Source of the DNA: Bacteroidales bacterium
GTDB lineage: Bacteria; Bacteroidota; Bacteroidia; Bacteroidales; UBA4181
Assembly: GCA_017523725.1 (NCBI GenBank)
Contig: JAFWVY010000010.1
Coordinates: forward strand, 7,367-71,366
Reading direction: 5' to 3'
Length of the DNA stretch: 64,000 nucleotides
Below the pieces are notes generated by a model, which had not been told where the DNA came from, ran no database searches, and was given only the letters and a program-made list of their open reading frames with translations. This document shows, piece after piece, positions 6,003 to 41,132 of the stretch (the stretch's first letter is position 1; the number at the start of each line of letters is the position of its first letter). The position numbers and the translations under genes were made by a program.

Positions 6003-6020
6003 GGCGATTAGGGATTAAGG

Positions 6021-7688: not shown

Positions 7689-7696
7689 GTCTTTGT

Positions 7697-7702
7697 CCTC
7701 CT
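7697..7702 (-). promoter_or_regulatory. Shine-Dalgarno-like AGGAGG 8 nt upstream of the lipoprotein ATG
   Basis: Plus strand cctcct at 7697..7702. The coding strand reads tatagaAGGAGGacaaagacATG. Confidence 0.35.
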
Positions 7703-7724
7703 TCTATAAACGTTGAAAAATATC

Positions 7725-7732
7725 TATTTTTG
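7725..7732 (+). promoter_or_regulatory. Putative -7 box (TATTTTTG) for proS
   Basis: Exact TAnnTTTG match ending 41 nt upstream of the proS ATG, within the AT-rich divergent intergenic region. Confidence 0.45.
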
Positions 7733-7773
7733 CGGTGTAAATGTAGCAAACAAATTTTATACCAAGTTAGATT

Positions 7774-9246
7774 ATGGCTAAAGTATTGACTCCCCGCGCA
7801 GAGAATTATTCGCAATGGTACAACGACCTGGTCGTGAAGGCGGACCTTGCGGAGACTTCGGCGGTGAGGGGATGCATGGTGATAAAACCTTATGGTTATG
7901 CCATCTGGGAGACGATGCATGACGTGCTGGACCGGATGTTCAAGCAGACCGGGCACCAGAACGCCTATTTCCCCCTGTTTATCCCGAAAAGTTTCTTCAG
8001 CCGCGAGGCGCATCATGTGGAGGGTTTCGCCAAGGAATGCGCCGTGGTGACCCATTACCGCCTCAAAAACGACCCGGAGGGGAAAGGCGTGATCGTCGAT
8101 CCCGAGGCCAAACTGGAGGAAGAACTGATTGTGCGTCCGACGTCTGAAACGATAATCTGGAATACTTACCGGAACTGGATACATTCTTACCGCGATCTGC
8201 CTATTCTGGTGAACCAGTGGGCGAACGTGGTGCGCTGGGAGATGCGCACACGGCTTTTCCTGCGCACGGCGGAATTCCTGTGGCAGGAGGGGCATACCGC
8301 GCACGCCACGGCAGAAGAGGCCATGGAGGAAATGAACAGGATGATAGGCGTGTATGCCGATTTTGTCGAGAATTACATGGCCGTGCCGGTCATCAAGGGT
8401 TACAAGACGGACAAGGAACGTTTCGCCGGTGCGGTGGAGACCATGTCCATCGAAGCCATGATGCAGGACGGCAAGGCGCTGCAGGCCGGGACCTCCCATT
8501 TCCTGGGACAGAATTTCGCCAAGGCGTTCGATGTGAAGTTCGCCAACCGGGAAGGGGCGCTGGAATATGTCTGGGCGACTTCCTGGGGCGTGTCTACCCG
8601 GCTCATGGGGGCGCTGATCATGGCTCATTCGGATGACAACGGGCTGGTGCTGCCGCCGCGGCTGGCACCGATCCATGTGGTGATGGTGCCGATATACCAG
8701 CAGGCGGCGCAGATTCCCGGCTTGGTGGCGGCATTGCAGGCGCTCAAGGTCAAGCTGGAAAACCGTGGTCTGCGCGTGAAACTGGACGACCGCGATACGG
8801 TCAAGCCGGGATTCAAGTTCGCAGAGCACGAACTGAAAGGTATTCCGGTACGCGTGGCGCTGGGACCGAGGGACCTGGCGGCCGGCACCGTGGAAATCGC
8901 ACGCCGTGACACCCTGGAGAAACAGGTGGTGGACATGCAGGCGGCAGAGCAGGTCATCGTGGACCTGATGGAGGAGATTCAGCGGAATATCTTCGTCAAG
9001 GCCAAGGCTTTCAGAACGGCACATACGGTGAATGCGGACACTTACGACGAATTCAAGGCGGCGCTGGACGGGGGCAACTTCGTCATGGCGCACTGGGACG
9101 GCACTTCGGAAACCGAGGAACTGATCAAGGACGAGACCAAGGCGACCATCCGTTGTATCCCATGCGATGCGCCGGAAGAACAGGGCCGCTGCATCCGTAC
9201 GGGACGGCCGTCTGCACGACGGGTGCTGTTTGCCCGGGCCTATTAA
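7774..9246 (+). CDS. proS: Proline--tRNA ligase (archaeal/eukaryote-like class II type, as usual in Bacteroidota)
   Basis: [46 protein letters not shown]...; 490 aa ending ...VLFARAY. Confidence 0.97.
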
Positions 9247-9258
9247 GCACAGCCTGTG

Positions 9259-10074
9259 ATGACAAGCGTCGACAGCCCGCTCGTGATGGGCATTCTCAAT
9301 GTGACGCCGGATTCTTTTTTCGACGGCGGGGCGTATGACGGCGAGCGTGCCGTGGCAACCCGGTGTGAGAACATCCTGTCGGAAGGCGGCGCATGGATAG
9401 ATGTCGGCGGTGTTTCGACGCGTCCCGGGGCTTCGGAGGTTCCGGCCGAAGAGGAATGGCGCCGGGTGTCGGCGGCGCTCCGGACGCTGCGGCGTCATTT
9501 TCCGGATGCCCGGGTTTCGGTCGATACGTTCCGTGCTGAGATTGCCAGACGGGCGGTGTCGGAGTTCGGCATTCAGATGGTCAACGATATTTCCGGCGGG
9601 ACGGACGCAGATATGTTCTCCACGGTGGCGGAACTGGGGGTGGCGTATGTGTTGTCGCACCATCCTGCGGCAGAATCAGGCATGGCCGGTCTGCCGGAAC
9701 CGGTCGTGGAACGGGAGAAATTTTTCTTTGCGCGTCTGGTACCGCGGCTTATGGCATGCGGTGTCCGGGATATATGGATCGATCCGGGTATCGGGTTCGG
9801 GAAAACGTTGGAAGAGAACTTCGCGTTGGTCGCCCACTTGGACGAATTGTCGGAAGATGGTCGGCCTCTGTTGGTGGGCGTATCCAGAAAATCCATGATA
9901 TACAGGCTTCTGGATACGGATCCGGACGGGGCTTTGGCCGGTACGCTGGCCGTTGAGACCCTGGCGCTTCTGCACGGTGCCCGGATGCTGCGCGCACACG
10001 ATGTCCGTGCAGCATCCGACTGTGTCCGCATCGTCGGGAAGTTTTTGTCGTGCCGTCAAAAAGAATGTCTATGA
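9259..10074 (+). CDS. folP: Dihydropteroate synthase
   Basis: Pterin-binding motifs LVMGILNVTPDSFFDGG and IDVGGVSTRPG...VSVDT...WIDPGIGFGKT. The track start 9256 is GTG; ATG at 9259 is more likely. Confidence 0.93.
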   Translation: MTSVDSPLVMGILNVTPDSFFDGGAYDGERAVATRCENILSEGGAWIDVGGVSTRPGASEVPAEEEWRRVSAALRTLRRHFPDARVSVDTFRAEIARRAVSEFGIQMVNDISGGTDADMFSTVAELGVAYVLSHHPAAESGMAGLPEPVVEREKFFFARLVPRLMACGVRDIWIDPGIGFGKTLEENFALVAHLDELSEDGRPLLVGVSRKSMIYRLLDTDPDGALAGTLAVETLALLHGARMLRAHDVRAASDCVRIVGKFLSCRQKECL

Positions 10075-19425: not shown

Positions 19426-20754
19426 TTATCGTCTCGGCATGCGGCGCATCAGTCCGGCCATTTTTTTCTGGTCGGTCATCATGTGCATCATTTTCCGTGT
19501 TTCGTCGAACTGCTTGATAAGGCGGTTGATTTCCTGGATGTCGGTTCCGCTTCCACGGGCAATGCGTTTCCTCCGGCTTCCGTTGATGATGGCCGGCGTG
19601 GCACGCTCTTCGGGCGTCATCGAATGGATGATCGCCTCGATGCCCTTGAAGGCGTCGTCGTCGATGTCCAGATTCCGGATGGCCTTGCCTACGCCGGGAA
19701 TCATGCCAGCCAGGTCTTTCAGGTTGCCCATTTTCTTGATCTGCTGTATCTGCCCCAGGAAATCGTTGAAATCGAACTGGTTCTTGGCGATTTTCTTCTG
19801 CAGGCGACGGGCTTCCTCGGCGTCGAACTGTTCCTGGGCTTTCTCCACCAGGGAGACGATGTCGCCCATGCCCAGGATGCGGTCGGCCATACGGGCCGGG
19901 TGGAAGAGGTCGAGCGCGTCCATCTTTTCGCCCGTCGAAACGAACTTGATGGGCTTGTCGACCACCGACTTGATGGACAGTGCGGCACCGCCGCGGGTGT
20001 CGCCGTCCAGTTTGGTGAGCACGACGCCGTCGAAGTCAAGTCGGTCGTTGAAGGCTTTGGCCGTGTTGACGGCATCCTGTCCGGTCATGGAGTCGACGAC
20101 GAACAGGATCTCGTCGGGAGAGACGGCCTGTTTGATGGCGGCGATTTCCGCCATCATCTCCTCGTCCACGGCCAGTCGGCCTGCGGTATCGATGATGACT
20201 GTGCCGAATCCGTGCGTCTTGGCATGGGCGATGGCGTTTTTGGCAATCTGAACAGCATTGCGGCTGCCTTCTTCGGTATAGACGGGTGCACCGACTTGGT
20301 CGGCCAGGACTTTCAGCTGCTCGATGGCGGCCGGACGGTAAACGTCGCAGGCGGCCAGCAGCACAGAACGCCCTTTCTTGCTCTTGAGCCACTGGGTGAG
20401 CTTGCCGGAGAACGTGGTCTTGCCGGAACCCTGCAGACCGGCGATCAGTACCACGGCCGGGCTGCCCTTGAGGTGCATTTCCGAGGTCTGACTGCCCATG
20501 AGGGCGGTCAGCTCGTCGTGCACGATCTTGACCATCATGTCGCTCGGCTTGACGGCATGAAGCACGTCCATACCCAAGGCTTTCTGCTTCACGTTGTCGG
20601 TGAAGGTCTTGGCCGTCTTGTAGTTGACGTCGGCGTCAAGCAGTGCCTTGCGGACTTCTTTCAGCGTTTCGGCCACGTTGATGTCGGTAATCTTTCCCTG
20701 CCCTTTCAGCAGCTTGAATGCGCGGTCGAGTTTGTCTGATAAATTGTCGAACAT
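19426..20754 (-). CDS. ffh: Signal recognition particle protein Ffh
   Basis: MFDNLSDKLDRAFKLLKGQGKI..., GTPase motifs GLQGSGKTT and DTAGR and TKLDGD, and a Met-rich M domain. Confidence 0.97.
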   Translation of the reverse strand: MFDNLSDKLDRAFKLLKGQGKITDINVAETLKEVRKALLDADVNYKTAKTFTDNVKQKALGMDVLHAVKPSDMMVKIVHDELTALMGSQTSEMHLKGSPAVVLIAGLQGSGKTTFSGKLTQWLKSKKGRSVLLAACDVYRPAAIEQLKVLADQVGAPVYTEEGSRNAVQIAKNAIAHAKTHGFGTVIIDTAGRLAVDEEMMAEIAAIKQAVSPDEILFVVDSMTGQDAVNTAKAFNDRLDFDGVVLTKLDGDTRGGAALSIKSVVDKPIKFVSTGEKMDALDLFHPARMADRILGMGDIVSLVEKAQEQFDAEEARRLQKKIAKNQFDFNDFLGQIQQIKKMGNLKDLAGMIPGVGKAIRNLDIDDDAFKGIEAIIHSMTPEERATPAIINGSRRKRIARGSGTDIQEINRLIKQFDETRKMMHMMTDQKKMAGLMRRMPRR

Positions 20755-22649: not shown

Positions 22650-23276
22650 TCAGTCTTTGAGATGTTCCGCAAATGTGTGGCGGTAGAACAGCAGAATGAT
22701 GAAGACTCCGATGGTGATGGCCGAGTCGGCCAGATTGAAGATGGGACGGAAAAAGATGAACTCTTCTCCGGCGGAGAACGGGAACCATTGGGGCACCGCG
22801 CCTTTTATGATCGGGAAATACAGCATGTCAACGACTTTCCCCTTCAGGAATCCGGCGTATCCACCGTCTTCCGGAAGGAAGGATGCCACGTGGGAAAACG
22901 TGCTTTGGTCGAAAACCAGCCCGTAGAACATGCTGTCGATGATATTGCCGATGGCCCCGGCGAGAACGAGTGTACAGGCAAGTACGAATCCGGTACGGGC
23001 TTTCATCTTGAGCAGGTAGTGGATGTACCAGCCGATGAGTCCGACGGCGGCGATCCGGAACAGGCTGAGCAGGAATTTACCGATGCTGCCGCCCAGTTCG
23101 AAACCGAAGGCCATGCCGTTGTTCTCGATGAAGCGGATGAGGAACCACTGTCCGCAGACCGGGATGTCCTGTCCGAGGGTCATGTGTGTCTTGATCCAGA
23201 ACTTGACCGCCTGATCGGCAATCAGGACGAAAAAGAACAGTATCAGACATTTGGTGCAGGGAGACAGTCTTTTCAT
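22650..23276 (-). CDS. lspA: Lipoprotein signal peptidase (signal peptidase II)
   Basis: Four-TM protein with motifs DQAVKFWIK, FIENNGMAFG, AGAIGNIIDS and FNLADSAI. Confidence 0.9.
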   Translation of the reverse strand: MKRLSPCTKCLILFFFVLIADQAVKFWIKTHMTLGQDIPVCGQWFLIRFIENNGMAFGFELGGSIGKFLLSLFRIAAVGLIGWYIHYLLKMKARTGFVLACTLVLAGAIGNIIDSMFYGLVFDQSTFSHVASFLPEDGGYAGFLKGKVVDMLYFPIIKGAVPQWFPFSAGEEFIFFRPIFNLADSAITIGVFIILLFYRHTFAEHLKD

Positions 23277-24994: not shown

Positions 24995-26563
24995 CTATGC
25001 CGGCTGCAGCACCACAAACGGAACAATCATCTCTTCCATGGAGATGCCGCCGTGCTGGAAGGTCTGGTGATAGTAACTGGCGAACTGGTTGTAATTTTTC
25101 GGATAGATAAGATAATCGCCGCCGGATGCGAAAATGTAACTGGTGGTGAGCGCTGTCCGTGGCAGTTGGCAGGAAGCCGGCTCCCGGACCTCGAAAATGC
25201 GTTTGTGTTCGAAGGCCAGTTTGCGCCCCTGTTTGTAGCGGATGTTGACTGAGGATTCGCGGTCGCCGACGACCCGGACGGGATTGGTCACCCGGATGGA
25301 GCCGTGGTCGGTGGTAATGATGACACGGACTCCTTTGGCGGCCATTGCCCGGAGCAGGTCCAGCAGCGCAGAATGCTCGAACCATGTGCGCGTCAGGGTG
25401 CGGTAGGCGGCTTCGTCGCCGGACAGCTGTCGGATCATGTCGCTGTCGGTTCGCGCATGTGAAAGCTGGTCCACAAAATTGAACACCAGCGCGATGAGGT
25501 CGTATTGCAGATATTGCCCGAGTTTCTCCGGCAGTTTCTTCCCGGCTTTTTCAGAGGCGATTTTCTCGTAAATCATCCGGACCGGAAGACGGCGTCGTCT
25601 CAGATGTTGCTCGAGCAGTTGCTGCTCGAATTCGTTATGTCCTTCGTCGTGCTCTTCCTCCCCTGTCCAGTATTCCGGCATGGACCGCTGGATCTGCAGC
25701 GGCAGCAGCCCGGCGAAGAGCGCGTTCCGTGCGTACTGGGTCACTGTGGGCAGGATGGCGCTGTACAGCAATTCCTTTTCGGTCTTGAAGTAGGGTGCAA
25801 GCAGCGGGGCGAAGGCCTTCCACTGGTCGTACCGCATGTTGTCGATGACCAGCAGGCAGGTAGGCTGTCCGGTTGCAAGCATCGGGAAAAGTTCCTTCTG
25901 CAGGATGGTGGAAGAAAGAAGCGGGGTCTCCGGACTGTCCGGTGATTGCATCCAGCCGGTGTAGTTCTGCCGGACGAACTTGGCGAAGGCGGCATTGGCA
26001 TCGTTTTTCTGGGTCTGCAGGATGTCCTGCAGCAGGTTGTCTCCGAGCGATTCCAGCTCCATATCCCAGTAAACAAGTTTCCGGTAGAGCTCAGCGTAGT
26101 CTCCGAACGAACGGGCGGCTGCGATGTCGCCGCCCAGTTCTGCGAACGTGGTCTGGTAGGCCGTGGTGGTCCGGGCGCTGACCAGACGCCGGCTTTCGGT
26201 GTTTTTCTTGATGCTCGACAGAATCTGGTTCGGATGGACCGGCTTGATGAGGTAGTCGGCGATTTTGGCCCCGATGGCCTCATCCATGATGTTCTCCTCT
26301 TCGCTTTTGGTAATCATGACCACGGGCGTGTCCGGTGCGGTCATCTTGATGCGTGAAAGCGTCTCGAGACCGCTGAGCCCCGGCATGTTTTCGTCCAGCA
26401 GAATCAGGTCGGCCTGAATCTCTTTCAGCATGTCGATGGCGTCGTAACCGTTGGTCGCCGTGCGTACGTCGTACCCCTTGCCTTGCAGGAACAGGACGTG
26501 CGGGCGGAGCAGGTCGATCTCGTCGTCGGCCCAGAGAATGGTTATTCTGCGATCCGTGCTCAT
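24995..26563 (-). CDS. porX: PorX-type T9SS response regulator: CheY-like receiver fused to a PglZ/alkaline-phosphatase-superfamily domain
   Basis: Receiver ITILWADDEIDLLRPHVLFLQGKGYDV...LILLDENMPGLSG...KPV. PglZ motifs VIDNMRYDQW and ITTDHGS. 522 aa, the size of P. gingivalis PorX. ATGA overlap with the upstream ORF. Confidence 0.8.
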   Translation of the reverse strand: MSTDRRITILWADDEIDLLRPHVLFLQGKGYDVRTATNGYDAIDMLKEIQADLILLDENMPGLSGLETLSRIKMTAPDTPVVMITKSEEENIMDEAIGAKIADYLIKPVHPNQILSSIKKNTESRRLVSARTTTAYQTTFAELGGDIAAARSFGDYAELYRKLVYWDMELESLGDNLLQDILQTQKNDANAAFAKFVRQNYTGWMQSPDSPETPLLSSTILQKELFPMLATGQPTCLLVIDNMRYDQWKAFAPLLAPYFKTEKELLYSAILPTVTQYARNALFAGLLPLQIQRSMPEYWTGEEEHDEGHNEFEQQLLEQHLRRRRLPVRMIYEKIASEKAGKKLPEKLGQYLQYDLIALVFNFVDQLSHARTDSDMIRQLSGDEAAYRTLTRTWFEHSALLDLLRAMAAKGVRVIITTDHGSIRVTNPVRVVGDRESSVNIRYKQGRKLAFEHKRIFEVREPASCQLPRTALTTSYIFASGGDYLIYPKNYNQFASYYHQTFQHGGISMEEMIVPFVVLQPA

Positions 26564-29214
26564 TGTTCTCTGAATAAGCCGGCGTGTCCGGTGCGGAAAC
26601 TGCGGAGATACGACTGGACGGCCCCTGTGGATTCAAGCAGCCGGAGATCTTCTTCTGTAATCAGGAAGAAGAAACCTTCGCCCCGCAAGTGCTCCTGCAT
26701 GGCGGGTGTCTCCGCAAATTTCAGGTAATACTTTTCGGCATCCTGTATGCGCCGGAACGGCGATACCGTGAGGATGACGGCCTCGCGCGGCATGTCGGTC
26801 CGCGAAATTTCGAGGTCGGCTCCCGGATAGTTGCTGACGGTGAAGTCTGTCAGGTCGAAGACAAGCTGGTTGAGGTCTTCCTGGGCCGAAAGATACCAGC
26901 CGAAGATCTGCGGCCGGGCCCGGTCGCAGGTAAATTGCAGCGAGTCGACCTCCCCGGTGTCGGACAGGCGGCCGGCCATTTCTGCCGTTGTCTGGTAATT
27001 GGCGAATGCCGACAGGATATCGGCGGCGGCAGCAGCCACTTCCTCCCGCGGATAGCGTTCGATGACCTGCCGCATTTCCGTCCGGAGGGTGTCGATGTTT
27101 TGGCTGCGCCGGCTGGCGGACAAGGCGCGGAGGTAGGCGAACTGCGGCAGGGAGACGTCGTCGGTGAACAAGTTGAAGGCCTGGTCGGCCATGGCGATGA
27201 CCGCATCGTCCTCCCGTTGCTGGTATTTGTCGTATGTCTGCCGGTACCATTGTTCAGCTGTTTCGCGGGCAGAGGTCCGACGGGCGAGGAATTCCGGGTC
27301 GTCCAGCATGCGTGCATAGACGCTGCCGGGTGCGACGGCGTTCAGGGTACGGCGGCTGGCGGTGGCCCGTTCCGTGTCTCCCAGCGAGGTATAGAGCCGG
27401 GTCAGAGCGAAGTAGGCATAGGGACCATAGTCGGATTCCGGGTACCTGGACAGCAGCTCTTCATATTGTTTCACTGCGGCCGCAGCATCTCCGAGAAAAG
27501 AATCGTAGATGTCGGCGCTGCCGGCAAGGGCCTCCTGAATCTTCCGGTGAGAGAGGGCGAGAGCTTCCTCAGTGCGGGGCAGGTCCTGCGTGTAGAAATC
27601 GTGTTCATGCGTGTCGGTGATACGCGTCTGCTGCGTTGTGTCGGCTTCGGCTGCCGCGGCGGTCTCGGGGGTTCTGTACACGATGTCACGGTTGCTGCGG
27701 CGCCAGTCGTCCTCAAGCGTGCGTTTTCCCCATCGTAGTGCGAATTCGTTGGCTCCACGCGATTTGGCTGTGTTACTGTAGAAGTACCATTGGTTTTCTG
27801 TCCCGGCGATGGCTCCCGACTGCCTTGCGCGCTGGTTGTAATACTGCCTCAGGCGGGCTTGCTCCGCTTCGGCGGCCTTTTGTTCTTTTTCGCGGAGTTC
27901 CCCGATGGTCTGTTCAATCAGAGATTCCAGTTCTTCCTCCGGCATGGCGGCCATCCGTTGCAGGCTGTCTTCGCGCTGGATTGCTTCCAGATGACGCATC
28001 AGGGTTCTCCGGTTTTTTGCGCGGTCCTGTATTTCGGCATATTGCGGATGAAGGGTGGTGATGGCCTGCAGGGTTGAGTCGTAATAGGCACCGGCCGTCT
28101 CATATTGTTTCCGGTCGAAAAAAAAATCGGCCACCCTCCGGCAGGATTCGCCGCGCAGCGGATCCCGTCCCCGGGTCAGTGCCGCTGCCTGGCAATAGAG
28201 CGGGACCGCTTCGTCCAGACGGCCTTCTTCGGCATAGACATTGGCCAGCGCATAATAGATTTGATTGCGTCGCGACTGGTTGCGGGGCCGTTTCGCCATG
28301 ACGGACAGGTCGTGCTTGATGGTTTCCCGGTCGCCCTGTGCCGCCAGAATCTTGGCGTGTTCCATCTGTGCCGCGAAGCGCATCGCCTCGGGCGCGCCGC
28401 TGCGGGCAACCTGTCGGTACTGCTGTCCGGCCCGGCCGTTATCGCCCTTCAGTGCGTAAAGCTGCGCCAGCAGATAGCCGATGCGGTGCTTCGTGCCGCC
28501 GGGAACGGCCCGGCTGTGCTGCAGCTCCTCCAGCATCGGGAGAACCTGGTCGAAGTCTTCCTGTTGCAGCAGCAGGTCGGCCTGCAGCAGCCGCAACTCT
28601 GTCCTGAAAGCGGCCCGGTCGGGCAGTGACCGGTCGTCCAGCAAGGCCTGCAACCGGCTTTGCGCCTGTTTGAAATCCTTCTGTACCAGCAGGGTTCTGA
28701 CGCGCCATAGCTCGGACGTATATACAATCGGATCCTGCGGGAAAATCTCGGTGATGCGGTCGAAGGTCTTTATGGCGTTGTAATAATCCTGCAGATAGAA
28801 ATAGGATTTTCCCGACAGAAGATAGCATTGAGCGATGTACGGGTTGAACTCGTTCTTTGCATAGAACCGCTGTTCGGCTGCGGTCATGTTCTTCTGTCCG
28901 ATGTCGGGCTTGGCTTTGATGGAATGCAGCGAGACAGCCGTTTCCGCTTTCTGGACGGCGGTCTCGAACGACTCGGCACCGGCCGTGACAGGAACGGATT
29001 CGTAAGGGAACAGCGGCAAAGGCCGGGTATAGTCTTCCTGATAGGCATTCGCGACGGCCTCCATGCCGGCCCTGAACTGTTCCTGTGCGTTGAACAGGAT
29101 GTTGTATTTGGTAGTGACGCTGTGGTAGGATCGGGAGAACGGCGTGTTCCTTTGCGTGGAACATCCAGCGAGGCACAGCAGCAGGGCAAGCCCGGCAAAG
29201 ACTTTGCGCAGCAC
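26560..29214 (-). CDS. porW: Candidate nested product from internal GTG 29214: PorW/SprE-like T9SS TPR lipoprotein (884 aa)
   Basis: GTG at 29214..29212 is in frame (codon 403). It would give (M)LRKVFAGLALLLCLAGC, a canonical lipoprotein signal with lipobox LAGC. The following NTPFSRSYHSVTTKYNILFN resembles the PorW/SprE N-terminus as I recall it. Confidence 0.45.
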   Translation of the reverse strand: MLRKVFAGLALLLCLAGCSTQRNTPFSRSYHSVTTKYNILFNAQEQFRAGMEAVANAYQEDYTRPLPLFPYESVPVTAGAESFETAVQKAETAVSLHSIKAKPDIGQKNMTAAEQRFYAKNEFNPYIAQCYLLSGKSYFYLQDYYNAIKTFDRITEIFPQDPIVYTSELWRVRTLLVQKDFKQAQSRLQALLDDRSLPDRAAFRTELRLLQADLLLQQEDFDQVLPMLEELQHSRAVPGGTKHRIGYLLAQLYALKGDNGRAGQQYRQVARSGAPEAMRFAAQMEHAKILAAQGDRETIKHDLSVMAKRPRNQSRRNQIYYALANVYAEEGRLDEAVPLYCQAAALTRGRDPLRGESCRRVADFFFDRKQYETAGAYYDSTLQAITTLHPQYAEIQDRAKNRRTLMRHLEAIQREDSLQRMAAMPEEELESLIEQTIGELREKEQKAAEAEQARLRQYYNQRARQSGAIAGTENQWYFYSNTAKSRGANEFALRWGKRTLEDDWRRSNRDIVYRTPETAAAAEADTTQQTRITDTHEHDFYTQDLPRTEEALALSHRKIQEALAGSADIYDSFLGDAAAAVKQYEELLSRYPESDYGPYAYFALTRLYTSLGDTERATASRRTLNAVAPGSVYARMLDDPEFLARRTSARETAEQWYRQTYDKYQQREDDAVIAMADQAFNLFTDDVSLPQFAYLRALSASRRSQNIDTLRTEMRQVIERYPREEVAAAAADILSAFANYQTTAEMAGRLSDTGEVDSLQFTCDRARPQIFGWYLSAQEDLNQLVFDLTDFTVSNYPGADLEISRTDMPREAVILTVSPFRRIQDAEKYYLKFAETPAMQEHLRGEGFFFLITEEDLRLLESTGAVQSYLRSFRTGHAGLFREQ

Positions 29215-30420
29215 GGCGGCGGTAGCGCCTTTGCCTTGTCCGACGAAACGGCCTGCCTTGTCACCGGCGTCCTTCCGGTGTCCTGCGTGGTCCAGCCAGT
29301 CATTCAGGCACGCTTCCAGCCCTTCGTAGTCCGAAATAGTGCGGGCGCCGCCGCAGGCAATCAGATCGACCGCTTCCTGGAACCCGGTGTAAGCCGGCCC
29401 GAAGATGACGGGAATGCCGTAGACGGCCGCTTCGAGGGTGTTGTGGATGCCGCGTCCGAAACCGCCGCCGATGTAGGCGATGGCGGCATACTGGTAAACA
29501 GCCGACAGCATGCCCATGTTGTCGATGATCATCACTTCGAAACCGGAGAGGTCTCCGGCCGTTCCGGCCTGCGTGTAGCGGACCGCTTTCTTCCGAATGG
29601 CGTCCAGGATGCGTTGTACATGTGCTTCATCGATTTCGTGCGGAGCGATAATCCATTTGAGCGGCCGGTCCGAGGTGTTGAGATACCGGATCAGCAGGGC
29701 TTCGTCGGGCGGCCAGGAACTGCCCGCCACGATGCATGTACGCCCGGCAGCAAAACGTTCGACCGCTGCAATGGCAGGTGCTTCGGCGGCGATACGGCAG
29801 ACCCGGTCGAACCGGGTGTCGCCTGTCACTGTGACGTTGCGGATGCCGATGCCCTCCAGCAACTGCTGCGAACGTTCGTTCTGGACAAACAGGTGTGAGA
29901 ACATGTGGAGCATCTTCCGGAACCATCCGCCGTACCATTTGAAAAACACTTGGCCGGGACGGAAATTTGCCGAGACCAAGAATGTCGGAATGTTCTTGTC
30001 CTGCAAGGCGGCCAGCATATTCCGCCAGAATTCGTATTTGATGAAGAAGGCCTTTTCCGGCCGTATCAGTTGTACGAACCGGCGGGCGTTGGCCCGGGTG
30101 TCTGCCGGCAGATACCAGACATAGTCGGCTTGTGCGTAATTTTTCCGGATTTCGTAGCCTGACGGCGAGAAAAAAGTCAGGACAATCTTGTGTCCGGGAT
30201 GCTGCTCCCGAAGGGCCTCAATGAGCGGCCGCCCCTGCTCGAACTCTCCGAGCGAGGCGCAGTGTATCCAGAACCGCCGTTCGTCCTGCCCGGTTTCCGC
30301 CGCAATGCGGCTCATCAGATGCCGCCTGCCCGCCACCCACTGCGCCGCCTTCTTGTTGCCTGTGGCGGCCGCGATGCGGATGGCCAGCGTATAGAGGAAT
30401 ATGAAGCAGGAATACAGCAT
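26560..30420 (-). CDS. waaA: Single 1286-codon ORF: 3-deoxy-D-manno-octulosonic acid (Kdo) transferase WaaA/KdtA domain (aa 1 to ~400) continuous in frame with a PorW/SprE-like TPR lipoprotein (aa 403-1286)
   Basis: N-terminal part: FWIHCASLGEFEQGRPLIEALREQHPGHKIVLTFFSPSGYE...IGGGFGRGIHNTLEAAVYGIPVIFGP (GT30 Kdo transferase). There is no stop codon before VLRKVFAGLALLLCLAGCSTQRNTPFSRSYHSVTTKYNILFNAQEQF... and the long TPR-like repeats that follow. Confidence 0.8.
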   Translation of the reverse strand: MLYSCFIFLYTLAIRIAAATGNKKAAQWVAGRRHLMSRIAAETGQDERRFWIHCASLGEFEQGRPLIEALREQHPGHKIVLTFFSPSGYEIRKNYAQADYVWYLPADTRANARRFVQLIRPEKAFFIKYEFWRNMLAALQDKNIPTFLVSANFRPGQVFFKWYGGWFRKMLHMFSHLFVQNERSQQLLEGIGIRNVTVTGDTRFDRVCRIAAEAPAIAAVERFAAGRTCIVAGSSWPPDEALLIRYLNTSDRPLKWIIAPHEIDEAHVQRILDAIRKKAVRYTQAGTAGDLSGFEVMIIDNMGMLSAVYQYAAIAYIGGGFGRGIHNTLEAAVYGIPVIFGPAYTGFQEAVDLIACGGARTISDYEGLEACLNDWLDHAGHRKDAGDKAGRFVGQGKGATAAVLRKVFAGLALLLCLAGCSTQRNTPFSRSYHSVTTKYNILFNAQEQFRAGMEAVANAYQEDYTRPLPLFPYESVPVTAGAESFETAVQKAETAVSLHSIKAKPDIGQKNMTAAEQRFYAKNEFNPYIAQCYLLSGKSYFYLQDYYNAIKTFDRITEIFPQDPIVYTSELWRVRTLLVQKDFKQAQSRLQALLDDRSLPDRAAFRTELRLLQADLLLQQEDFDQVLPMLEELQHSRAVPGGTKHRIGYLLAQLYALKGDNGRAGQQYRQVARSGAPEAMRFAAQMEHAKILAAQGDRETIKHDLSVMAKRPRNQSRRNQIYYALANVYAEEGRLDEAVPLYCQAAALTRGRDPLRGESCRRVADFFFDRKQYETAGAYYDSTLQAITTLHPQYAEIQDRAKNRRTLMRHLEAIQREDSLQRMAAMPEEELESLIEQTIGELREKEQKAAEAEQARLRQYYNQRARQSGAIAGTENQWYFYSNTAKSRGANEFALRWGKRTLEDDWRRSNRDIVYRTPETAAAAEADTTQQTRITDTHEHDFYTQDLPRTEEALALSHRKIQEALAGSADIYDSFLGDAAAAVKQYEELLSRYPESDYGPYAYFALTRLYTSLGDTERATASRRTLNAVAPGSVYARMLDDPEFLARRTSARETAEQWYRQTYDKYQQREDDAVIAMADQAFNLFTDDVSLPQFAYLRALSASRRSQNIDTLRTEMRQVIERYPREEVAAAAADILSAFANYQTTAEMAGRLSDTGEVDSLQFTCDRARPQIFGWYLSAQEDLNQLVFDLTDFTVSNYPGADLEISRTDMPREAVILTVSPFRRIQDAEKYYLKFAETPAMQEHLRGEGFFFLITEEDLRLLESTGAVQSYLRSFRTGHAGLFREQ

Positions 30421-30432
30421 CGGACGGAGTGG

Positions 30433-32124
30433 TTATTCTCCCATTTTCCTGGCCCAGGAGTCCTTCATCGTCACCGTGCGGTTGAACACGGGGCGTTCAG
30501 GCGTGCTGTCCGGGTCGGTGCAGAAATAACCGACGCGTTCGAACTGGAATTTGTCGCCGGGCACCGTCCCTTTGAGGAACGGCTCGACCTTGCCGGTAAG
30601 CACGGTCAGCGAATCGGGATTCAGGTTGTCTTTGTAGTCATGCCCTTCGGCGGTGTCATCGGGATTTTCGACGCTGAAAAGCCGGTCGTACAGCCGGATT
30701 TCGGCATCCACGGCGTGCCGTGCCGACACCCAGTGGATCGTGCCCTTGACCTTGCGTCCGTCGGGCGACTGCCCGCCTTTGGAGGACGGATCGTAGGTGC
30801 AGCGCAGTTCCGTTACTTGCCCGTCGGCATCCTTGACAACTTCGTTGCACTTGATGAAATAGCCGTAGCGCAGCCTCACCTCCGCACCGGGGGCCAGCCG
30901 GAAATATTTCTTCGGCGGATCTTCCATGAAATCGTCGCGGTCGATCCACAGGGTCCCGGAGAACGGTACCTGCCGCGTGCCCTGCGACGGGTCTTCCGGG
31001 TTGTTGACGGCTTCCAGCCATTCTTCTCCGTTTTCGGGATAGTTGGTGATGGTCACCTTCAGCGGATGCAGGACGGCCAGTACGCGGGAGGCGATTTTGT
31101 TGAGATGCTCGCGGATGCAGAATTCCAGCAGCGAGTATTCGATGACGTTGTCCCGTTTGGCCACGCCGACACGTTCGGCGAAGTTCCTGATGGATTCGGG
31201 CGTGTAGCCGCGGCGGCGCAGACCGCAGATGGTCGGCATGCGCGGATCGTCCCATCCGGCCACATAGTGCTGCTTGACCAGTTCGAGCAGTTTGCGTTTG
31301 CTCATCACGGTATAATTGATGTTCAGCCGTGCGAACTCAATCTGCTGCGGGGCATGGATGCCCAGTTCCCGGATGAACCACTCGTACAGCGGCCGGTGCA
31401 CCTCGAACTCCAGCGTGCAGACGGAGTGGGTGACGCCTTCGACCGAGTCGCTCTGTCCGTGGGCGTAGTCGTACATGGGATAGATGCACCACTTGTTCCC
31501 TGTGCGGTGGTGCGGCGCATGGATGATGCGGTACATGACCGGGTCGCGCATGTGCATGTTGGGCGAGGCCAGGTCGATTTTAGCCCGCAGGGTTTTCTCT
31601 CCGTCCTTGAATTCGCCGCGGCGCATCCGTTCGAACAGGTCCAGATTCTCCTCCACGGAACGGTTCCGGTACGGGCTCGGTGTTGCCGGTACCTGCGGGG
31701 TGCCCCGGTCGCGGCTGATCTGCTCTTGCGACAGGTCGCAGACATAGGCCTTCCCTTTCTTGATGAGCTGTACGGCCCACGCATAAAGCTGCTCGAAGTA
31801 GTCGGAGGCGTAGAATTCGTTGGCCCAGTTGAACCCCAGCCAGTGGATGTCCTCGCGGATGGCATCCACGTATTCGGTGTCCTCCTTGGCCGGATTCGTG
31901 TCGTCGAACCGCAGGTTGCAGATGCCGTTGTATTTCTGTGCGAGGCCGAAATTCAGGCAGATAGACTTGGCGTGCCCGATATGCAGGTAGCCGTTGGGCT
32001 CCGGCGGGAACCGGGTCTGCACTCTGCCGCCGTTCTTTCCGTTGCGAATGTCTTCTTCGATGATGGCATGGATGAAATTCTGCGATGCCGACTTCTCTTC
32101 GATGGTTGTTCCGTCTGTATTCAT
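30433..32124 (-). CDS. glnS: Glutamine--tRNA ligase
   Basis: [24 protein letters not shown] (HIGH) and VMSKRKL (KMSKS). 563 aa. Confidence 0.97.
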
Positions 32125-32177: not shown

Positions 32178-32185
32178 CAAATGTA
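32178..32185 (-). promoter_or_regulatory. Putative -7 box (TACATTTG) for glnS-waaA/porW-porX
   Basis: Plus strand caaatgta. Exact TAnnTTTG ending 53 nt upstream of the glnS ATG. Confidence 0.45.
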
Positions 32186-37426: not shown

Positions 37427-39592
37427 ATGAAGAGAATTACTTTTTTATGCATGGTTTTCGGACTGCTGGTCTGCGGTGCAGCCTGCTCACGGCAGGAATC
37501 GCCGGCAGACAGCCGTCTGGAAATGACCTATGCGTGGCAGAAAATAAGCCATCCCGATGTGGAACGTGTTGCTGCACAGTTTGCCACGCCGCCGGCCGAG
37601 AATGCTCCTTGGGTCATCTGGGGATGGGATGGACCGATGACGGAGGAGGTCATCCGCCGCGACCTTGACTCGCTCGCTTCGAGAAACGTGAAAGCCGTGT
37701 CCATCGAGGCGGGATACAACATGGACAATGCGCCTTACCTTTCGGAAGGATGGTTCAAGAATGTGCGTTTTGCGGCGGAACAGGCGGCTGCGCACGGTAT
37801 GAAAGTGTGGATTATTGACGAAGGGAAGTATCCCAGCGGTTTTGCCGGAGGCAAGTTCTCGCAGGAAAAACCGGAACTCCGGATGCGCGGACTGAGCGTC
37901 GCGGAACGGGTGGAGGTCGAAGGTGGAGCGGCGTTTGACCGCACGTTGGACGACGCCACCATTGTCAGTGCCGTGGCTGTGTCGCGCCAGGACCGGCAGA
38001 AGGTGGAGGTGGTGCCCGTGACCGACGGCGCCATTCACTGGACGGCACCGGAAGGCTCGTCATGGCAGGTTTCGCTCGTCCGGGCCGACTTCCGGACGTC
38101 CGTGACCCGCGCTGCCAACAATCCCACGAGAGGCAAGGATGCCACCAACTTGCTTTGCGACTATCTTAGCGAAGCTGCTGTGGCTCAGTTTATCGAATTT
38201 ACGCATGAGCAGTATAAGAAGTATTGCGGCGATCTGTTCGGCTCGGTCATCCTGGGTTTCCGGGGCGACGAACCGGATTACGGGTTCACCCCGTGGACCC
38301 CGGACATGCCCGCGATATTCAAAGCGGCGAAAGGCTATGACATCGTGCCATACCTGGGGGCGGTGAATTCCGGTAACCTGCCGGATGCGCTTCAGCAGGT
38401 CAAGGCGGATTACTGGGATGTCTGGTCCGGCCTGTTCCGGGACAACTTCTTTACGCTTCAGGCCGACTGGCACCGCGCCAACGGCTTGGAGTATCTCGTG
38501 CACCTCAACCATGAGGACCGGATGACGTCGCTGATTACATCTTCGGGAGATTTCTTCCGCAACATGCGCCATGTGCAGATTCCCGGCGTCGATGCCATCT
38601 GGAACCAGATCTGGCCGGGCACCGTGGCGAATTTCCCGAAACTGGCCTCTTCCTCGGCCCACCTTTTCGGCAAACCCCGCGCCTTCAGCGAGAGTTTCGC
38701 CGCCTACAATCCCGGTCCCGATCCGGCTCAGGCCAAATGGGTCATTGATTACCAGCTGGCCCGGGGCATCAACGTGTTCGAGTTCATGTTCTGGGGGTCG
38801 TCCGCGCAGGGATGGCGCGGCCCGTCGGGCTGGATGGGCTCTCCGGAGTTCCCGGGGATCGTGCAGTATGCCAACCGGATGTGCTATGTTTTGTCGCAGG
38901 GAGTCCCCACGGCTTCGGTCGGCATCTATTATCCCACATCTTCGCTCTGGATGGGCGACCAGGCTTCGGACCAGAACACCTGGACGTTGGTGCAGTCCCT
39001 GTTGGACCGGCAGTATGATTTCGATTTTGTGGATGATCAGAGTCTTGGCGAAGTCATGACGCTGTCTGGCGGCAGACTGATGAATCTCAGCGGCCAGTCG
39101 TACGCCACCATTCTGGTGCCGGCGTGCCAGGTCCTGCCGCAAAAGGTTTACCAGCGGCTGAAGAAATTTGCGACGCAGGGCGGCAAGGTCTGTTTCATCG
39201 GATCTTTGCCGACGCGCTTGAGCGGGAAGACTTTCCGGGAGATGACCGAGGTGACCGCCCAGGATTTTGCTTGGGCGACGGTCGATCCGGAAAAGACGCT
39301 TTCGGATGTGACCGACGGCCTGCTGCCCGAAGCGGAGATCAAGCTGGACCAGCCATGTCGCAACTTTACCTTTGCGCACCGGAAACTGAACGATGCCGAG
39401 GTATATTTCCTTTTCAACGAGAACGATTCCCCGGTCTCCCGGACGGTGACCTTCGCTGCTTCCGGTAAAGCCGAGCTGTGGGATGCCGCTACGGGTGAAA
39501 TCACGCCGCTCGAAGCATCCGAAAAGGATGGCGGTATAGCTGTTCCCCTTTCGTTCGAAGGATGGGAATCAAAATGCGTGGTTATCAGATAG
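37427..39592 (+). CDS. Putative glycoside hydrolase lipoprotein, family not assignable by eye (its N-terminal region reminds me of GH106-type enzymes)
   Basis: Lipoprotein signal MKRITFLCMVFGLLVCGAAC. WGWDGPMTEEVIRRDLDSLASRNVKAVSIEAGY...MKVWIIDEGKYPSGFAGG. Lies 9 nt after the sugar porter. The track start 37421 is TTG; ATG 37427 is preferred. Confidence 0.6.
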   Translation: MKRITFLCMVFGLLVCGAACSRQESPADSRLEMTYAWQKISHPDVERVAAQFATPPAENAPWVIWGWDGPMTEEVIRRDLDSLASRNVKAVSIEAGYNMDNAPYLSEGWFKNVRFAAEQAAAHGMKVWIIDEGKYPSGFAGGKFSQEKPELRMRGLSVAERVEVEGGAAFDRTLDDATIVSAVAVSRQDRQKVEVVPVTDGAIHWTAPEGSSWQVSLVRADFRTSVTRAANNPTRGKDATNLLCDYLSEAAVAQFIEFTHEQYKKYCGDLFGSVILGFRGDEPDYGFTPWTPDMPAIFKAAKGYDIVPYLGAVNSGNLPDALQQVKADYWDVWSGLFRDNFFTLQADWHRANGLEYLVHLNHEDRMTSLITSSGDFFRNMRHVQIPGVDAIWNQIWPGTVANFPKLASSSAHLFGKPRAFSESFAAYNPGPDPAQAKWVIDYQLARGINVFEFMFWGSSAQGWRGPSGWMGSPEFPGIVQYANRMCYVLSQGVPTASVGIYYPTSSLWMGDQASDQNTWTLVQSLLDRQYDFDFVDDQSLGEVMTLSGGRLMNLSGQSYATILVPACQVLPQKVYQRLKKFATQGGKVCFIGSLPTRLSGKTFREMTEVTAQDFAWATVDPEKTLSDVTDGLLPEAEIKLDQPCRNFTFAHRKLNDAEVYFLFNENDSPVSRTVTFAASGKAELWDAATGEITPLEASEKDGGIAVPLSFEGWESKCVVIR

Positions 39593-41132
39593 CGGCGATG
39601 CGGTCGGCAACATTCACCCCGTCCATGGCGGATGAGGTGATGCCGCCCGCATAGCCGGCTCCCTCTCCGCACGGATACAGCCCGGATACCTGCACATGCT
39701 GCAGAGAGTCCGCTTCGCGCAGAATTCTCACCGGGGAAGACGAACGTGACTCAACGCCGACCACGACGGCTTCCCGGGTGAGGAATCCGTGCATTTTCCT
39801 GTCGAATTCCCTGAACCCTTCGCGCAGCCGTACGGAGACTTCCTCCGGCAGCCAGAAGTGCAGGGGCGACGGAATCAGTCCCGGCATGTATGAGTTTTCG
39901 GGCAGTGAACCCGACAGCCGGCCTGCCACGAAATCGGTGAGGCGGGCGGCCGGAGCCGTCTGGCCGCCTCCGCCGTTCAGCATGGCAAGATGCTCCACGG
40001 CCTGCTGGTAGCGCAGGCCGGCCAGCGGACCTTCCGCTGCAAAATCTTTAAGATCTTCTTCCCGCACCTCGGTGATGATTCCGGCGTTGGCATACGGGGT
40101 ATGCCGGCGTGAGGAAGACATGCCGTTCACGACCTGTCCCTCGGGCGAAGAGGCTGCGGCGACCATGAATCCGCCCGGACACATGCAGAAAGAATAGACG
40201 CCGCGTCCGCCCGCCTGGGCGGTCAGCGCATAAGTCGCAGCCGGCAGCCAGGCCATGCCGGGGTCGCGGTGATACTGTATTTCGTCGATGAGATCCTGTG
40301 GATGTTCCACCCGGACGCCCATGGCGAACGGCTTGCATGCCAGTGCCAGGCCTTTCCGGTGGAGCATGTCGTAGGTGTCGTGTGCCGAATGTCCCGTGGC
40401 CCAGACGACCGTATCCGTCGTTATCCAGCCGGTCTTCTCCGTAAAGACGCCTTGGATCTTTCCGTCTGCGATACGCAGGTCGGTGACTTTGGCTCCGAAA
40501 ATGACTTCGCCGCCGCATCCGGTGATGGTGGCATACATATGCCGCACGATGTCCGGCAGTTTGTCTGAACCGATGTGAGGATGAGCCTGGTACAGAATCT
40601 TTTCGTCAGCGCCGTGGAAATGGAACCGGGCGAGAATCCTACCTGTGTCACCGCGTTTGGACGACCGGGTGAACAGCTTGCCGTCGGAGAAGGTGCCGGC
40701 GCCGCCCCATCCGAAACAGTAGTTTGACTCTGCATTGAGCCCCAGTCCCCGCGAGAGAGTGGCGATGTCTTTCTTGCGTTCTCCTACCTCTTTTCCGCGC
40801 TCCAGTATGACGGGGCGCAGGCCGTGCTCAATGAGCCGGAGCGAGGCGAACAATCCGGCAGGCCCGCTTCCGACCACTACCACGGGGCGGCCGGCATGTA
40901 CATCCTGGTAACGGAACGGCTCCTGGCCGGCAGCCGGATCCTGCTCATCCGGGGCAAAGACGGCGACGGTGCGGAGAATCCTGACGCCTTGCCGGGACCG
41001 TGCATCGATGGATTCGCGCAATATGCGGGCGCACGGTGTCTCTGCAGTCTGTGCCGCTCTGCGCAGTACTTGCTGCCAAAGTCCGGGGTCCGCCGCTTCC
41101 TGCGGTGACAAGGAGAAATCGAGGATTCGCAT
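39585..41132 (-). CDS. FAD-dependent oxidoreductase (COG2509-type NAD(FAD)-utilising dehydrogenase)
   Basis: Rossmann motif VVVVGSGPAGLFASLRLIEHGLRPVILERG. C-terminal LYPCGEGAGYAGGITSSAMDG. Confidence 0.8.
   Translation of the reverse strand: MRILDFSLSPQEAADPGLWQQVLRRAAQTAETPCARILRESIDARSRQGVRILRTVAVFAPDEQDPAAGQEPFRYQDVHAGRPVVVVGSGPAGLFASLRLIEHGLRPVILERGKEVGERKKDIATLSRGLGLNAESNYCFGWGGAGTFSDGKLFTRSSKRGDTGRILARFHFHGADEKILYQAHPHIGSDKLPDIVRHMYATITGCGGEVIFGAKVTDLRIADGKIQGVFTEKTGWITTDTVVWATGHSAHDTYDMLHRKGLALACKPFAMGVRVEHPQDLIDEIQYHRDPGMAWLPAATYALTAQAGGRGVYSFCMCPGGFMVAAASSPEGQVVNGMSSSRRHTPYANAGIITEVREEDLKDFAAEGPLAGLRYQQAVEHLAMLNGGGGQTAPAARLTDFVAGRLSGSLPENSYMPGLIPSPLHFWLPEEVSVRLREGFREFDRKMHGFLTREAVVVGVESRSSSPVRILREADSLQHVQVSGLYPCGEGAGYAGGITSSAMDGVNVADRIAAI

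Follow-up and report, generated by a model that had tools for sequence, protein, structure and literature searches.

How can a cytoplasmic enzyme of lipopolysaccharide (LPS) synthesis and an outer-membrane lipoprotein come to be encoded by one gene, with no stop codon between them? The question is raised by a minus-strand open reading frame (ORF) in a 64,000-nt stretch of an uncultured Bacteroidales genome (assembly GCA_017523725.1, contig JAFWVY010000010.1, positions 7,367 to 71,366; the whole stretch is called the window here). It reads as the Kdo transferase WaaA followed in the same frame by PorW (SprE), a type IX secretion system (T9SS) lipoprotein. A first, sequence-only reading of this DNA had offered three explanations: a nested porW gene starting at an internal GTG, a real fusion processed by the lipoprotein enzymes Lgt and LspA, or a lost stop codon or assembly error. 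The second fits best. The ORF, waaA::porW, is probably a maintained gene fusion whose product is an obligatory polyprotein, predicted from its sequence to be split between Gly419 and Cys420 by Lgt and LspA. Coordinates of all features are collected in Table 1.

Two Modules in One Reading Frame

As originally described, the only stop codon in the 1286-aa ORF is the terminal one. An identical protein is deposited at NCBI as MBR3286365.1, under the name of a single “tetratricopeptide repeat protein.” Residues 1–402 appear to make up a complete WaaA, with Kdo transfer itself predicted. Pfam Glycos_transf_N (PF04413) matches aa 44–206 with 163 bits (gathering score 23.9), the NCBIfam WaaA models align over aa 3–407, and the motifs SLGE, FFSPSG, KYExW, GDTRFD, and GGxxxxGxHNxLE, invariant columns of a 21-sequence family alignment, are all present; these we take, from the work on structure 2XCI, to correspond to catalytic residues. 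The best score against the NCBIfam equivalog for lipid IV(A) Kdo transferase is 166.9 bits, below its cutoff of 524. In the other fusions that were scanned, too, the WaaA part scores well under the WaaA equivalog cutoffs. This may reflect the taxonomic scope of the models rather than a defect in the protein. The remainder of the ORF matches the PorW/SprE equivalog NF052312 with 531–533 bits against a cutoff of 250, over aa 414–1134 and positions 2–715 of the 716 in the model; 571 homologs of this module were retrieved. The description of the ORF as a complete WaaA followed by a PorW/SprE-like lipoprotein thus holds for both halves.

The Junction

The end of WaaA was mapped by alignment with 60 standalone WaaA proteins, the closest relatives (44–53% identity). 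In these, homology extends as far as the end of GATxx[IV]Lxx[VL]F, after which come 3–15 hydrophilic residues and a stop. In the window, the corresponding GATAAVLRKVF runs straight into AGLALLLCLAGC. From the other side, 118 PorW homologs were compared. Standalone PorW proteins open with a signal some 20 residues long whose last positions are (L/V/I)-x-(A/G/S)-C, and their mature N-terminus, C-S-T-(E/Q)-K-N-T..SR.YH..T..YN..FN, is near-invariant; the window protein matches it from Cys420 on (LAGC-S-T-Q-R-N-T). Read from the GTG at codon 403, the sequence is VLRKVFAGLALLLCLAGC, then STQRNTPFSRSYHSVTTKYNILFNAQ, with STQRNTPF directly after VLRKVFAGLALLLCLAGC, exactly as first reported. A cysteine at +1 followed by a serine at +2 is the signature of the PorW family, whose members are outer-membrane lipoproteins (PMC8754138).

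The join is therefore tight: the basic n-region needed by the PorW signal peptide comes from the last WaaA helix. The signal was judged by a regular expression and a hydropathy scan. The expression (basic n-region, uncharged core, [LVI][ASTVI][GAS]C) matches once in the 1286 residues, at K406–C420, so the signal peptide is not at the N-terminus of the translation product but at aa 403–419. The lipobox, the basic and hydrophobic regions before it, and the sharing of codons between the WaaA helix and the signal peptide had all been proposed in the sequence-only reading, and each is borne out by these comparisons.

Since waaA has no stop codon of its own, every ribosome that makes WaaA must continue into PorW. 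A programmed frameshift or termination event releasing WaaA was considered and rejected: the out-of-frame stops are 116 and 264 codons distant, too far to provide a neat exit by frameshifting, and local folding does not stand out, being about 1.3 standard deviations below that of internal codons.

Conservation of the Fusion

The lack of a stop at the junction recurs in at least seven independent assemblies, of NCBI, ENA, JGI, and Logan origin, at 98.5, 90.5, and 61% amino acid identity (contigs L010, L011, and L001 and cluster members P0297–P0301). The 90% cluster of the window protein includes other full-length 1286-aa copies from metagenome-assembled genomes (MCR5713833.1 at 98.5% and an ENA copy at 90.5%) as well as incomplete copies; these have FAGIVLLLSLAGC as their hydrophobic core, and the junction again has no stop. 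The most distant homolog (P0002, 1284 aa) is encoded on Logan contig L001 and is 61% identical overall, 73% in the WaaA part and 55% in the PorW part. Its gene order, glnS–fusion–downstream gene, is that of the window, with the next gene beginning 2 nt after the fusion stop (one base between). Its alignment at the junction has no gaps: the reading frame is preserved, as are the basic positions and the A-G-C of the lipobox, while 8 of the 17 signal-peptide residues differ but remain hydrophobic. The h-region differs yet remains hydrophobic in P0297 and P0299 as well as in L001. Alignment with related genomes, the first check that the sequence-only reading had proposed, therefore gives neither a stop nor a frameshift at the waaA–porW boundary.

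Both modules are under purifying selection. A metagenome scan yielded only two near-identical strains, JGI contigs L010 and L011, both ~98% identical to the window in nucleotide sequence. Nearly all of their differences from the window are synonymous; between strains this holds for 14 of 15 differences in WaaA and 44 of 52 in PorW, with a ratio of nonsynonymous to synonymous substitution (omega, Nei-Gojobori) of 0.02 for WaaA and 0.05–0.08 for PorW. Against L001, omega is 0.17 for WaaA and 0.27 for PorW at a synonymous divergence (dS) of ~1.3–1.4; the fusion has thus outlasted more than one substitution per synonymous site, and constraint has acted on WaaA and PorW alike.

These comparisons bear directly on the suggestion that the joined frame is an assembly or sequencing error, a recent stop loss, or a pseudogene forming at the boundary. 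The lineage is known only from metagenome assemblies, and one copy does carry a nonsense codon: in L010 (5368–5370), codon 993 of the fusion is changed from TAC to TAG inside porW, leaving a protein of 992 aa (P0301). However, that codon lies near the contig end, where mismatches are densely packed and several are non-synonymous, and it occurs in no other assembly, so that it is probably an assembly chimera or low-quality end and not a real truncation. With an identical or homologous junction in assemblies from four sources, out to a 61%-identical relative, and with strain differences that are mostly synonymous, an origin of the junction in error or decay, the third of the original explanations, is rejected as highly improbable.

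A contig look-up with the window protein itself returned no encoding contig on record. GTDB species representatives scanned with a PorW alignment gave only PorW loci about 25% identical, with no waaA within 4 kb upstream. The scan thus yielded no close relative with split genes from which to reconstruct the ancestral junction.

Internal Start and Promoter Signals

The GTG at codon 403 (29214..29212) is the only candidate for an internal start. Its surroundings were compared with those of the approximately 35 genes of the window (first-ATG calls) and of 859 internal in-frame ATG, GTG, and TTG codons, using A+T content at −20 to −1, a leave-one-out position weight matrix (PWM), and the minimum free energy (MFE) of local folding. 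For real starts the A+T content is 0.57 ± 0.14, the PWM score 1.7 ± 5.7, and the local MFE −8.7 ± 6.1 kcal/mol; internal codons average 0.40, −4.9, and −17.1. The GTG, at 0.25, −9.2, and −22.9 kcal/mol, is no better than the average internal codon on every measure, and its values fall among the lowest 3–6% of real starts. The Bacteroidota −7 promoter motif, TAnnTTTG, has 11 copies on the minus strand of the window, and for seven of these a gene begins within the next 100 nt downstream. The motif scan found neither this sequence nor the relaxed form TAnnTTT anywhere inside waaA, so the candidate of an internal promoter for porW was rejected; on L001 the same scan found no TAnnTTTG at all.

A nested, in-frame porW gene would have most functional PorW made by initiation at this GTG, with an 18-residue signal fM-LRKVFAGLALLLCLAG/C (the slash marking the cut) and the read-through chain as a tolerated by-product. 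The GTG does stand exactly where a textbook signal peptide would begin, and the three codons GTG-CTG-CGC are kept in L001. Its conservation needs no start-codon explanation, however, because Val403 is a conserved hydrophobic position of the WaaA GATxx[IV]L helix. Moreover, the fusion chain would still be made whenever WaaA is made. Given the start context and the empty promoter scan, internal initiation is not supported as the main route to PorW, and a nested gene, the first of the three original explanations, seems unlikely.

Topology and Predicted Structure

The sequence-only reading had called a covalent fusion of these two proteins topologically awkward. The charge and hydropathy profile contradicts this. 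There are only two hydrophobic segments in the 1286 residues, at aa 1–21 and 400–421, and each has a net charge of +5 on its cytoplasmic flank, which points to a cytoplasmic WaaA domain and an exported PorW. The predicted arrangement is a coherent one with two spans: an anchor, cytoplasmic WaaA, a signal segment oriented N-in/C-out, and periplasmic PorW. In E. coli WaaA, too, the GT-B domain is cytoplasmic behind an N-terminal anchor, and the combination of a cytoplasmic domain, one transmembrane (TM) segment, and a large extracytoplasmic domain is common, for example in PASTA kinases and MacB. An AlphaFold2 (AF2) model of aa 1–450 has a confidence (pLDDT) of 89.4, and the top Foldseek matches of the WaaA model are chains of the solved WaaA structure 2XCI (E = 1.7e-21, target-normalised TM-score 0.78–0.81). 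In this model the last WaaA helix runs into the signal segment as a single continuous helix, aa 399–423.

That continuous helix, together with a hydrophobic stretch of 13–17 residues that could act as stop-transfer or signal anchor, might be taken to mean that the segment is a permanent TM helix, leaving PorW tethered to the inner membrane through WaaA in a lineage with an altered T9SS architecture. Against this, the core has the length of a signal peptide rather than of a TM helix, and a plain TM helix has no need of a lipobox; yet L/V-A-G-C with Cys+1/Ser+2 is strictly kept, through the variants of the h-region and down to the 61%-identical relative. LspA is also encoded within the window (Table 1), at the position given in the sequence-only reading. 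PorW acts from the outer-membrane side, bridging the outer-membrane protein Sov to the PorK/N ring (PMC8754138). A fusion that stays uncleaved is accordingly rather improbable.

Proposed Processing

The favored interpretation is that of a polyprotein that separates itself in the course of normal lipoprotein maturation. One 1286-aa precursor would be translated, and the N-terminal anchor of WaaA would target the nascent chain to the inner membrane by way of the signal recognition particle (SRP) and Sec, the Kdo-transferase domain remaining in the cytoplasm. The segment at aa 403–419, following the basic residues of the last WaaA helix, would insert in the N-in/C-out orientation usual for signal peptides, and from there Sec would begin to export the PorW part, 867 residues long. 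Lgt would then add lipid to Cys420 and LspA would cleave between Gly419 and Cys420, after which the mature lipoprotein, with Cys+1/Ser+2, would be sorted to the outer membrane by the Lol pathway. WaaA would be left with the former signal peptide as a short hydrophobic membrane tail at its C-terminus, and the two proteins would be produced in a 1:1 ratio from one ORF. We infer this sequence of membrane insertion, lipidation, cleavage, and sorting from the protein sequence.

Several points weigh against this interpretation. Lipidation and cleavage are read from a regular expression and a hydropathy scan; the start-site model is approximate, resting on some 35 first-ATG calls in one 64-kb window; the identity of the GTG and the next two codons in the 61%-identical L001 would allow low-level internal initiation; the absence of a second waaA or porW holds for the 64-kb window, and the genome may carry copies elsewhere; and of the processing enzymes, LspA is the one identified in the window.

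If cleavage does occur as predicted, the signal peptide amounts to a self-removing linker, and fusions of an inner-membrane enzyme with an exported protein would be nearly cost-free. Such fusions would be close to neutral because cleavage restores two normal proteins, and they could therefore originate repeatedly, with whichever exported protein happens to lie downstream of waaA. If they are not neutral, the synthesis of the LPS core would seem to be functionally tied to the machinery of the outer membrane. A stronger version, in which WaaA-anchored polyproteins are a recurrent, selected strategy in Bacteroidota that couples LPS synthesis to assembly of outer-membrane machinery (by 1:1 stoichiometry, co-translationally, and at the same Sec site), is speculative and on balance doubtful; were it true, LspA-split polyproteins would be a first natural class of their kind.

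Distribution of the WaaA–PorW Fusion

Among the 120 best PorW homologs, a WaaA domain is found only in P0001 and P0002, and the next PorW is 35% identical. In an exhaustive HMMER search with WaaA only, against 1.84 billion cluster representatives (50%-identity library), 148 of the best 150 matches are standalone proteins of ~400–440 aa and two are fusions of ~1200 aa, both with TamL as the partner. A fusion of WaaA with a tetratricopeptide repeat (TPR) protein as a common, already annotated architecture was therefore discarded as a candidate. The window fusion and P0002 are both missing from these 150 matches, while P0001 is present in the 90% collection; the absence may be an effect of clustering or coverage. 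With two fused proteins among 120 PorW homologs, standalone WaaA as the norm, and no waaA within 4 kb upstream at the PorW loci of other Bacteroidota, the WaaA–PorW fusion is confined to a narrow lineage of uncultured Bacteroidales.

No description of this architecture was found in literature searches on PorW with WaaA, on TamL with WaaA, Kdo, or a fusion, on an internal lipobox with LspA, and on fused Kdo transferases in this group of bacteria. WaaA–lipoprotein fusions sit in public databases under generic, one-sided names. Because the name of each ORF reflects just one of its halves, such genomes seem to lack waaA. Signal-peptide and lipoprotein predictors that inspect only N-termini miss PorW and TamL in these fusions, and inventories of T9SS genes and of those belonging to TAM, the translocation and assembly module, must account for the fusion in these lineages.

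WaaA Fused to TamL and Other Proteins

The recurrence of WaaA fusions with TamL and other secreted partners was not part of the sequence-only reading. About 20 clusters of 1200-aa ORFs in the first homology search consist of WaaA with the lipoprotein TamL in the C-terminal part, which scores 604–625 bits against the TamL equivalog NF052279 (cutoff 400). They are from uncultured Bacteroidales (L012:3001–6600, L013:3001–6612, L016:3001–6672; P0003–P0023), and their database name is only “BamA/TamA family outer membrane protein.” Among the junction sequences are GATAKILKHVSLLIVAIVIMCSC-SPNRH, GATKKILSYLSIFLIAIVLLVGC-SPSKH, and GSTRKILSKLTLLSLILILLSSC-SASKY. Sixteen contigs, of ENA, NCBI, and Logan origin, carry one of these proteins, MBP3254448.1 (P0022), without any change. 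Identity between the TamL parts of separate fusions falls as low as 34%, so the WaaA–TamL clade is old.

In each of the WaaA–TamL fusions the lipoprotein motif occurs once, at the junction, except for an extra match at the N-terminus of one protein. These junctions also bear on the possibility of nested genes. One fusion (P0008, on L012) has an ATG at the place equivalent to the GTG of the window, which fits an internal start. Several others have K or R of the n-region only within the WaaA helix and no ATG ahead of the hydrophobic core; in the DNA of L013 and L016 there is only a GTG or TTG, which would give an uncharged n-region, so that no start in these would leave a charged one. TamL is reported to be essential in F. 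johnsoniae and C. canimorsus and, more generally, in those Bacteroidota in which it has been tested (PMC12045153). Because of this, and because many of the fusions have no usable internal start, the fusion precursor is the most plausible source of functional TamL in these lineages. The TamL papers examined make no mention of WaaA, Kdo, or a fusion.

Other partners are more scattered. P0018 joins WaaA to a type I signal and a Porin_10 domain. In the isolate Neolewinella lacunae, WP_187465395.1 (P0025/P0305, 709 aa) continues from WaaA directly into a type I-like signal, HWMALSLALLFWAIPGTCVRA/QPEL, and then a domain of ~270 aa of unknown family; this organism is a possible experimental model for WaaA–signal-peptide fusions. 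P0017 (1005 aa) has a linker of ~45 residues after WaaA that resembles a translated intergenic region, then a signal peptide, MKKILLLSLLATASMTATA, with its own ATG, and looks like a younger, stop-loss version of such a fusion. P0020 (936 aa) and P0021 (922 aa) carry a different kind of extension, long, acidic, and of low complexity, with no signal peptide. A nearly cost-free linker, if that is what the cleaved signal provides, would account for the range of WaaA partners, which includes TamL, PorW, and a Porin_10-family protein.

Gene Neighborhood and Other Features of the Window

Table 1. Features of the waaA::porW locus and its surroundings (window coordinates; residues are those of the fusion protein)
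Feature	Coordinates	Strand	Remarks
waaA::porW, single ORF, 1286 aa	26560..30420	−	Stop codon 26560..26562, the only stop being terminal
WaaA N-terminal hydrophobic membrane anchor, aa 1–21	30358..30420	−	Hydropathy/charge scan; AF2 helix 2–19; followed by net +5 cytoplasmic flank
WaaA (Kdo transferase, GT-B fold) catalytic module, aa 22–402, predicted cytoplasmic	29215..30357	−	PF04413; AF2/Foldseek; omega 0.02 between strains
Shared segment GATAAVLRKVF, aa 398–408	29197..29229	−	Last WaaA helix and basic n-region (R405, K406) of signal peptide
Predicted internal lipoprotein signal peptide, aa 403–419	29164..29214	−	n-region LRK, h-region VFAGLALLLCL; predicted LspA cut after G419
Lipobox L-A-G-C, aa 417–420	29161..29172	−	Cys420, predicted lipidated +1; Ser421, +2
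Mature PorW/SprE T9SS lipoprotein module with TPR repeats, aa 420–1286	26563..29163	−	NF052312; TPR Pfam matches
porX (T9SS response regulator)	24995..26563	−	NF052313, 738 bits; directly downstream of fusion
glnS	30433..32124	−	Pfam tRNA-synt_1c; precedes waaA by 12 nt; probably opens the operon
TAnnTTTG motif	32178..32185	−	Sole minus-strand copy between 26000 and 32500; 61 nt upstream of glnS
lspA (signal peptidase II)	22650..23276	−	Peptidase_A8, 119 bits
ffh (SRP54)	19426..20754		

The T9SS context of the PorW module is given by porX, which adjoins the fusion with an overlapping start: the stop codon of the fusion and the porX ATG share ATGA at 26560–26563. With this overlap and the short distance from glnS to waaA, glnS–waaA::porW–porX looks like one tightly coupled operon, served by one promoter-like motif (32178–32185).

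Elsewhere in the window, three minus-strand ORFs within 6008–9663 (6008–6589, 6908–7465, and 7462–9663) have a G+C content at third codon positions (GC3) of 0.50–0.60, compared with ~0.75 for the rest, and the 733-aa ORF of this group has no NCBIfam match; they may be foreign DNA or wrongly called frames. Three large minus-strand ORFs with coding-like GC3, at 59003–62437, 4479–6002, and 39585–41132 (1144, 507, and 515 aa), also have no NCBIfam match at E ≤ 1e-10.

Comparison with Known Systems

Each half of the fusion closely resembles its standalone counterpart. The WaaA module is like WaaA/KdtA of family GT30 (2XCI, from Aquifex aeolicus) in its anchor, GT-B fold, invariant motifs, and C-terminal GATxxIL helix. 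The difference is at the end: where 148 of the 150 closest cluster representatives finish 3–15 residues after this helix, the helix of the fusion enters a signal peptide with no stop. The PorW module agrees with P. gingivalis PorW and F. johnsoniae SprE (PMC8754138) in its equivalog match, TPRs, lipobox, Cys+1/Ser+2, mature N-terminus, and adjacent porX. In contrast to these, its type II signal is internal, 402 residues into the chain, and has no recognizable start site or promoter of its own. The nearest parallel is provided by the WaaA–TamL fusions, which have the same design (WaaA, no stop, the helix as n-region, a hydrophobic core, a lipobox, and an outer-membrane lipoprotein) but a different partner, and form a much broader and older clade.

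Outside this group, the closest precedents are polyproteins divided by signal peptidase. Bradyrhizobium japonicum FbcH is a cytochrome b–c1 precursor split at an internal signal sequence by type I signal peptidase, and flavivirus-type polyproteins are cut by a host signal peptidase, likewise of type I. In these, as in waaA::porW, one ORF encodes a cytoplasm-facing or membrane module, an internal signal, and an exported module; as in FbcH, two otherwise independent proteins are joined in one frame by a correctly oriented internal signal. The window ORF can thus reasonably be placed with polyproteins of this kind, with separation predicted and with the lipoprotein type of signal. The enzymes would differ, Lgt and LspA taking the part of type I signal peptidase, and so would the product, an outer-membrane lipoprotein. 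To our knowledge, processing of an internal signal by Lgt and LspA has been shown only with engineered constructs. Hayashi et al., in 1985 (J Biol Chem 260:5753), reportedly found that an engineered prolipoprotein signal internalised behind an N-terminal extension was still modified and processed. Those constructs were artificial and their extensions short, whereas waaA::porW is natural, conserved, and placed behind an enzyme of 400 residues. Should the predicted cut take place, waaA::porW would offer an example from nature in which Lgt and LspA process a signal peptide that lies 400 residues into a polypeptide.

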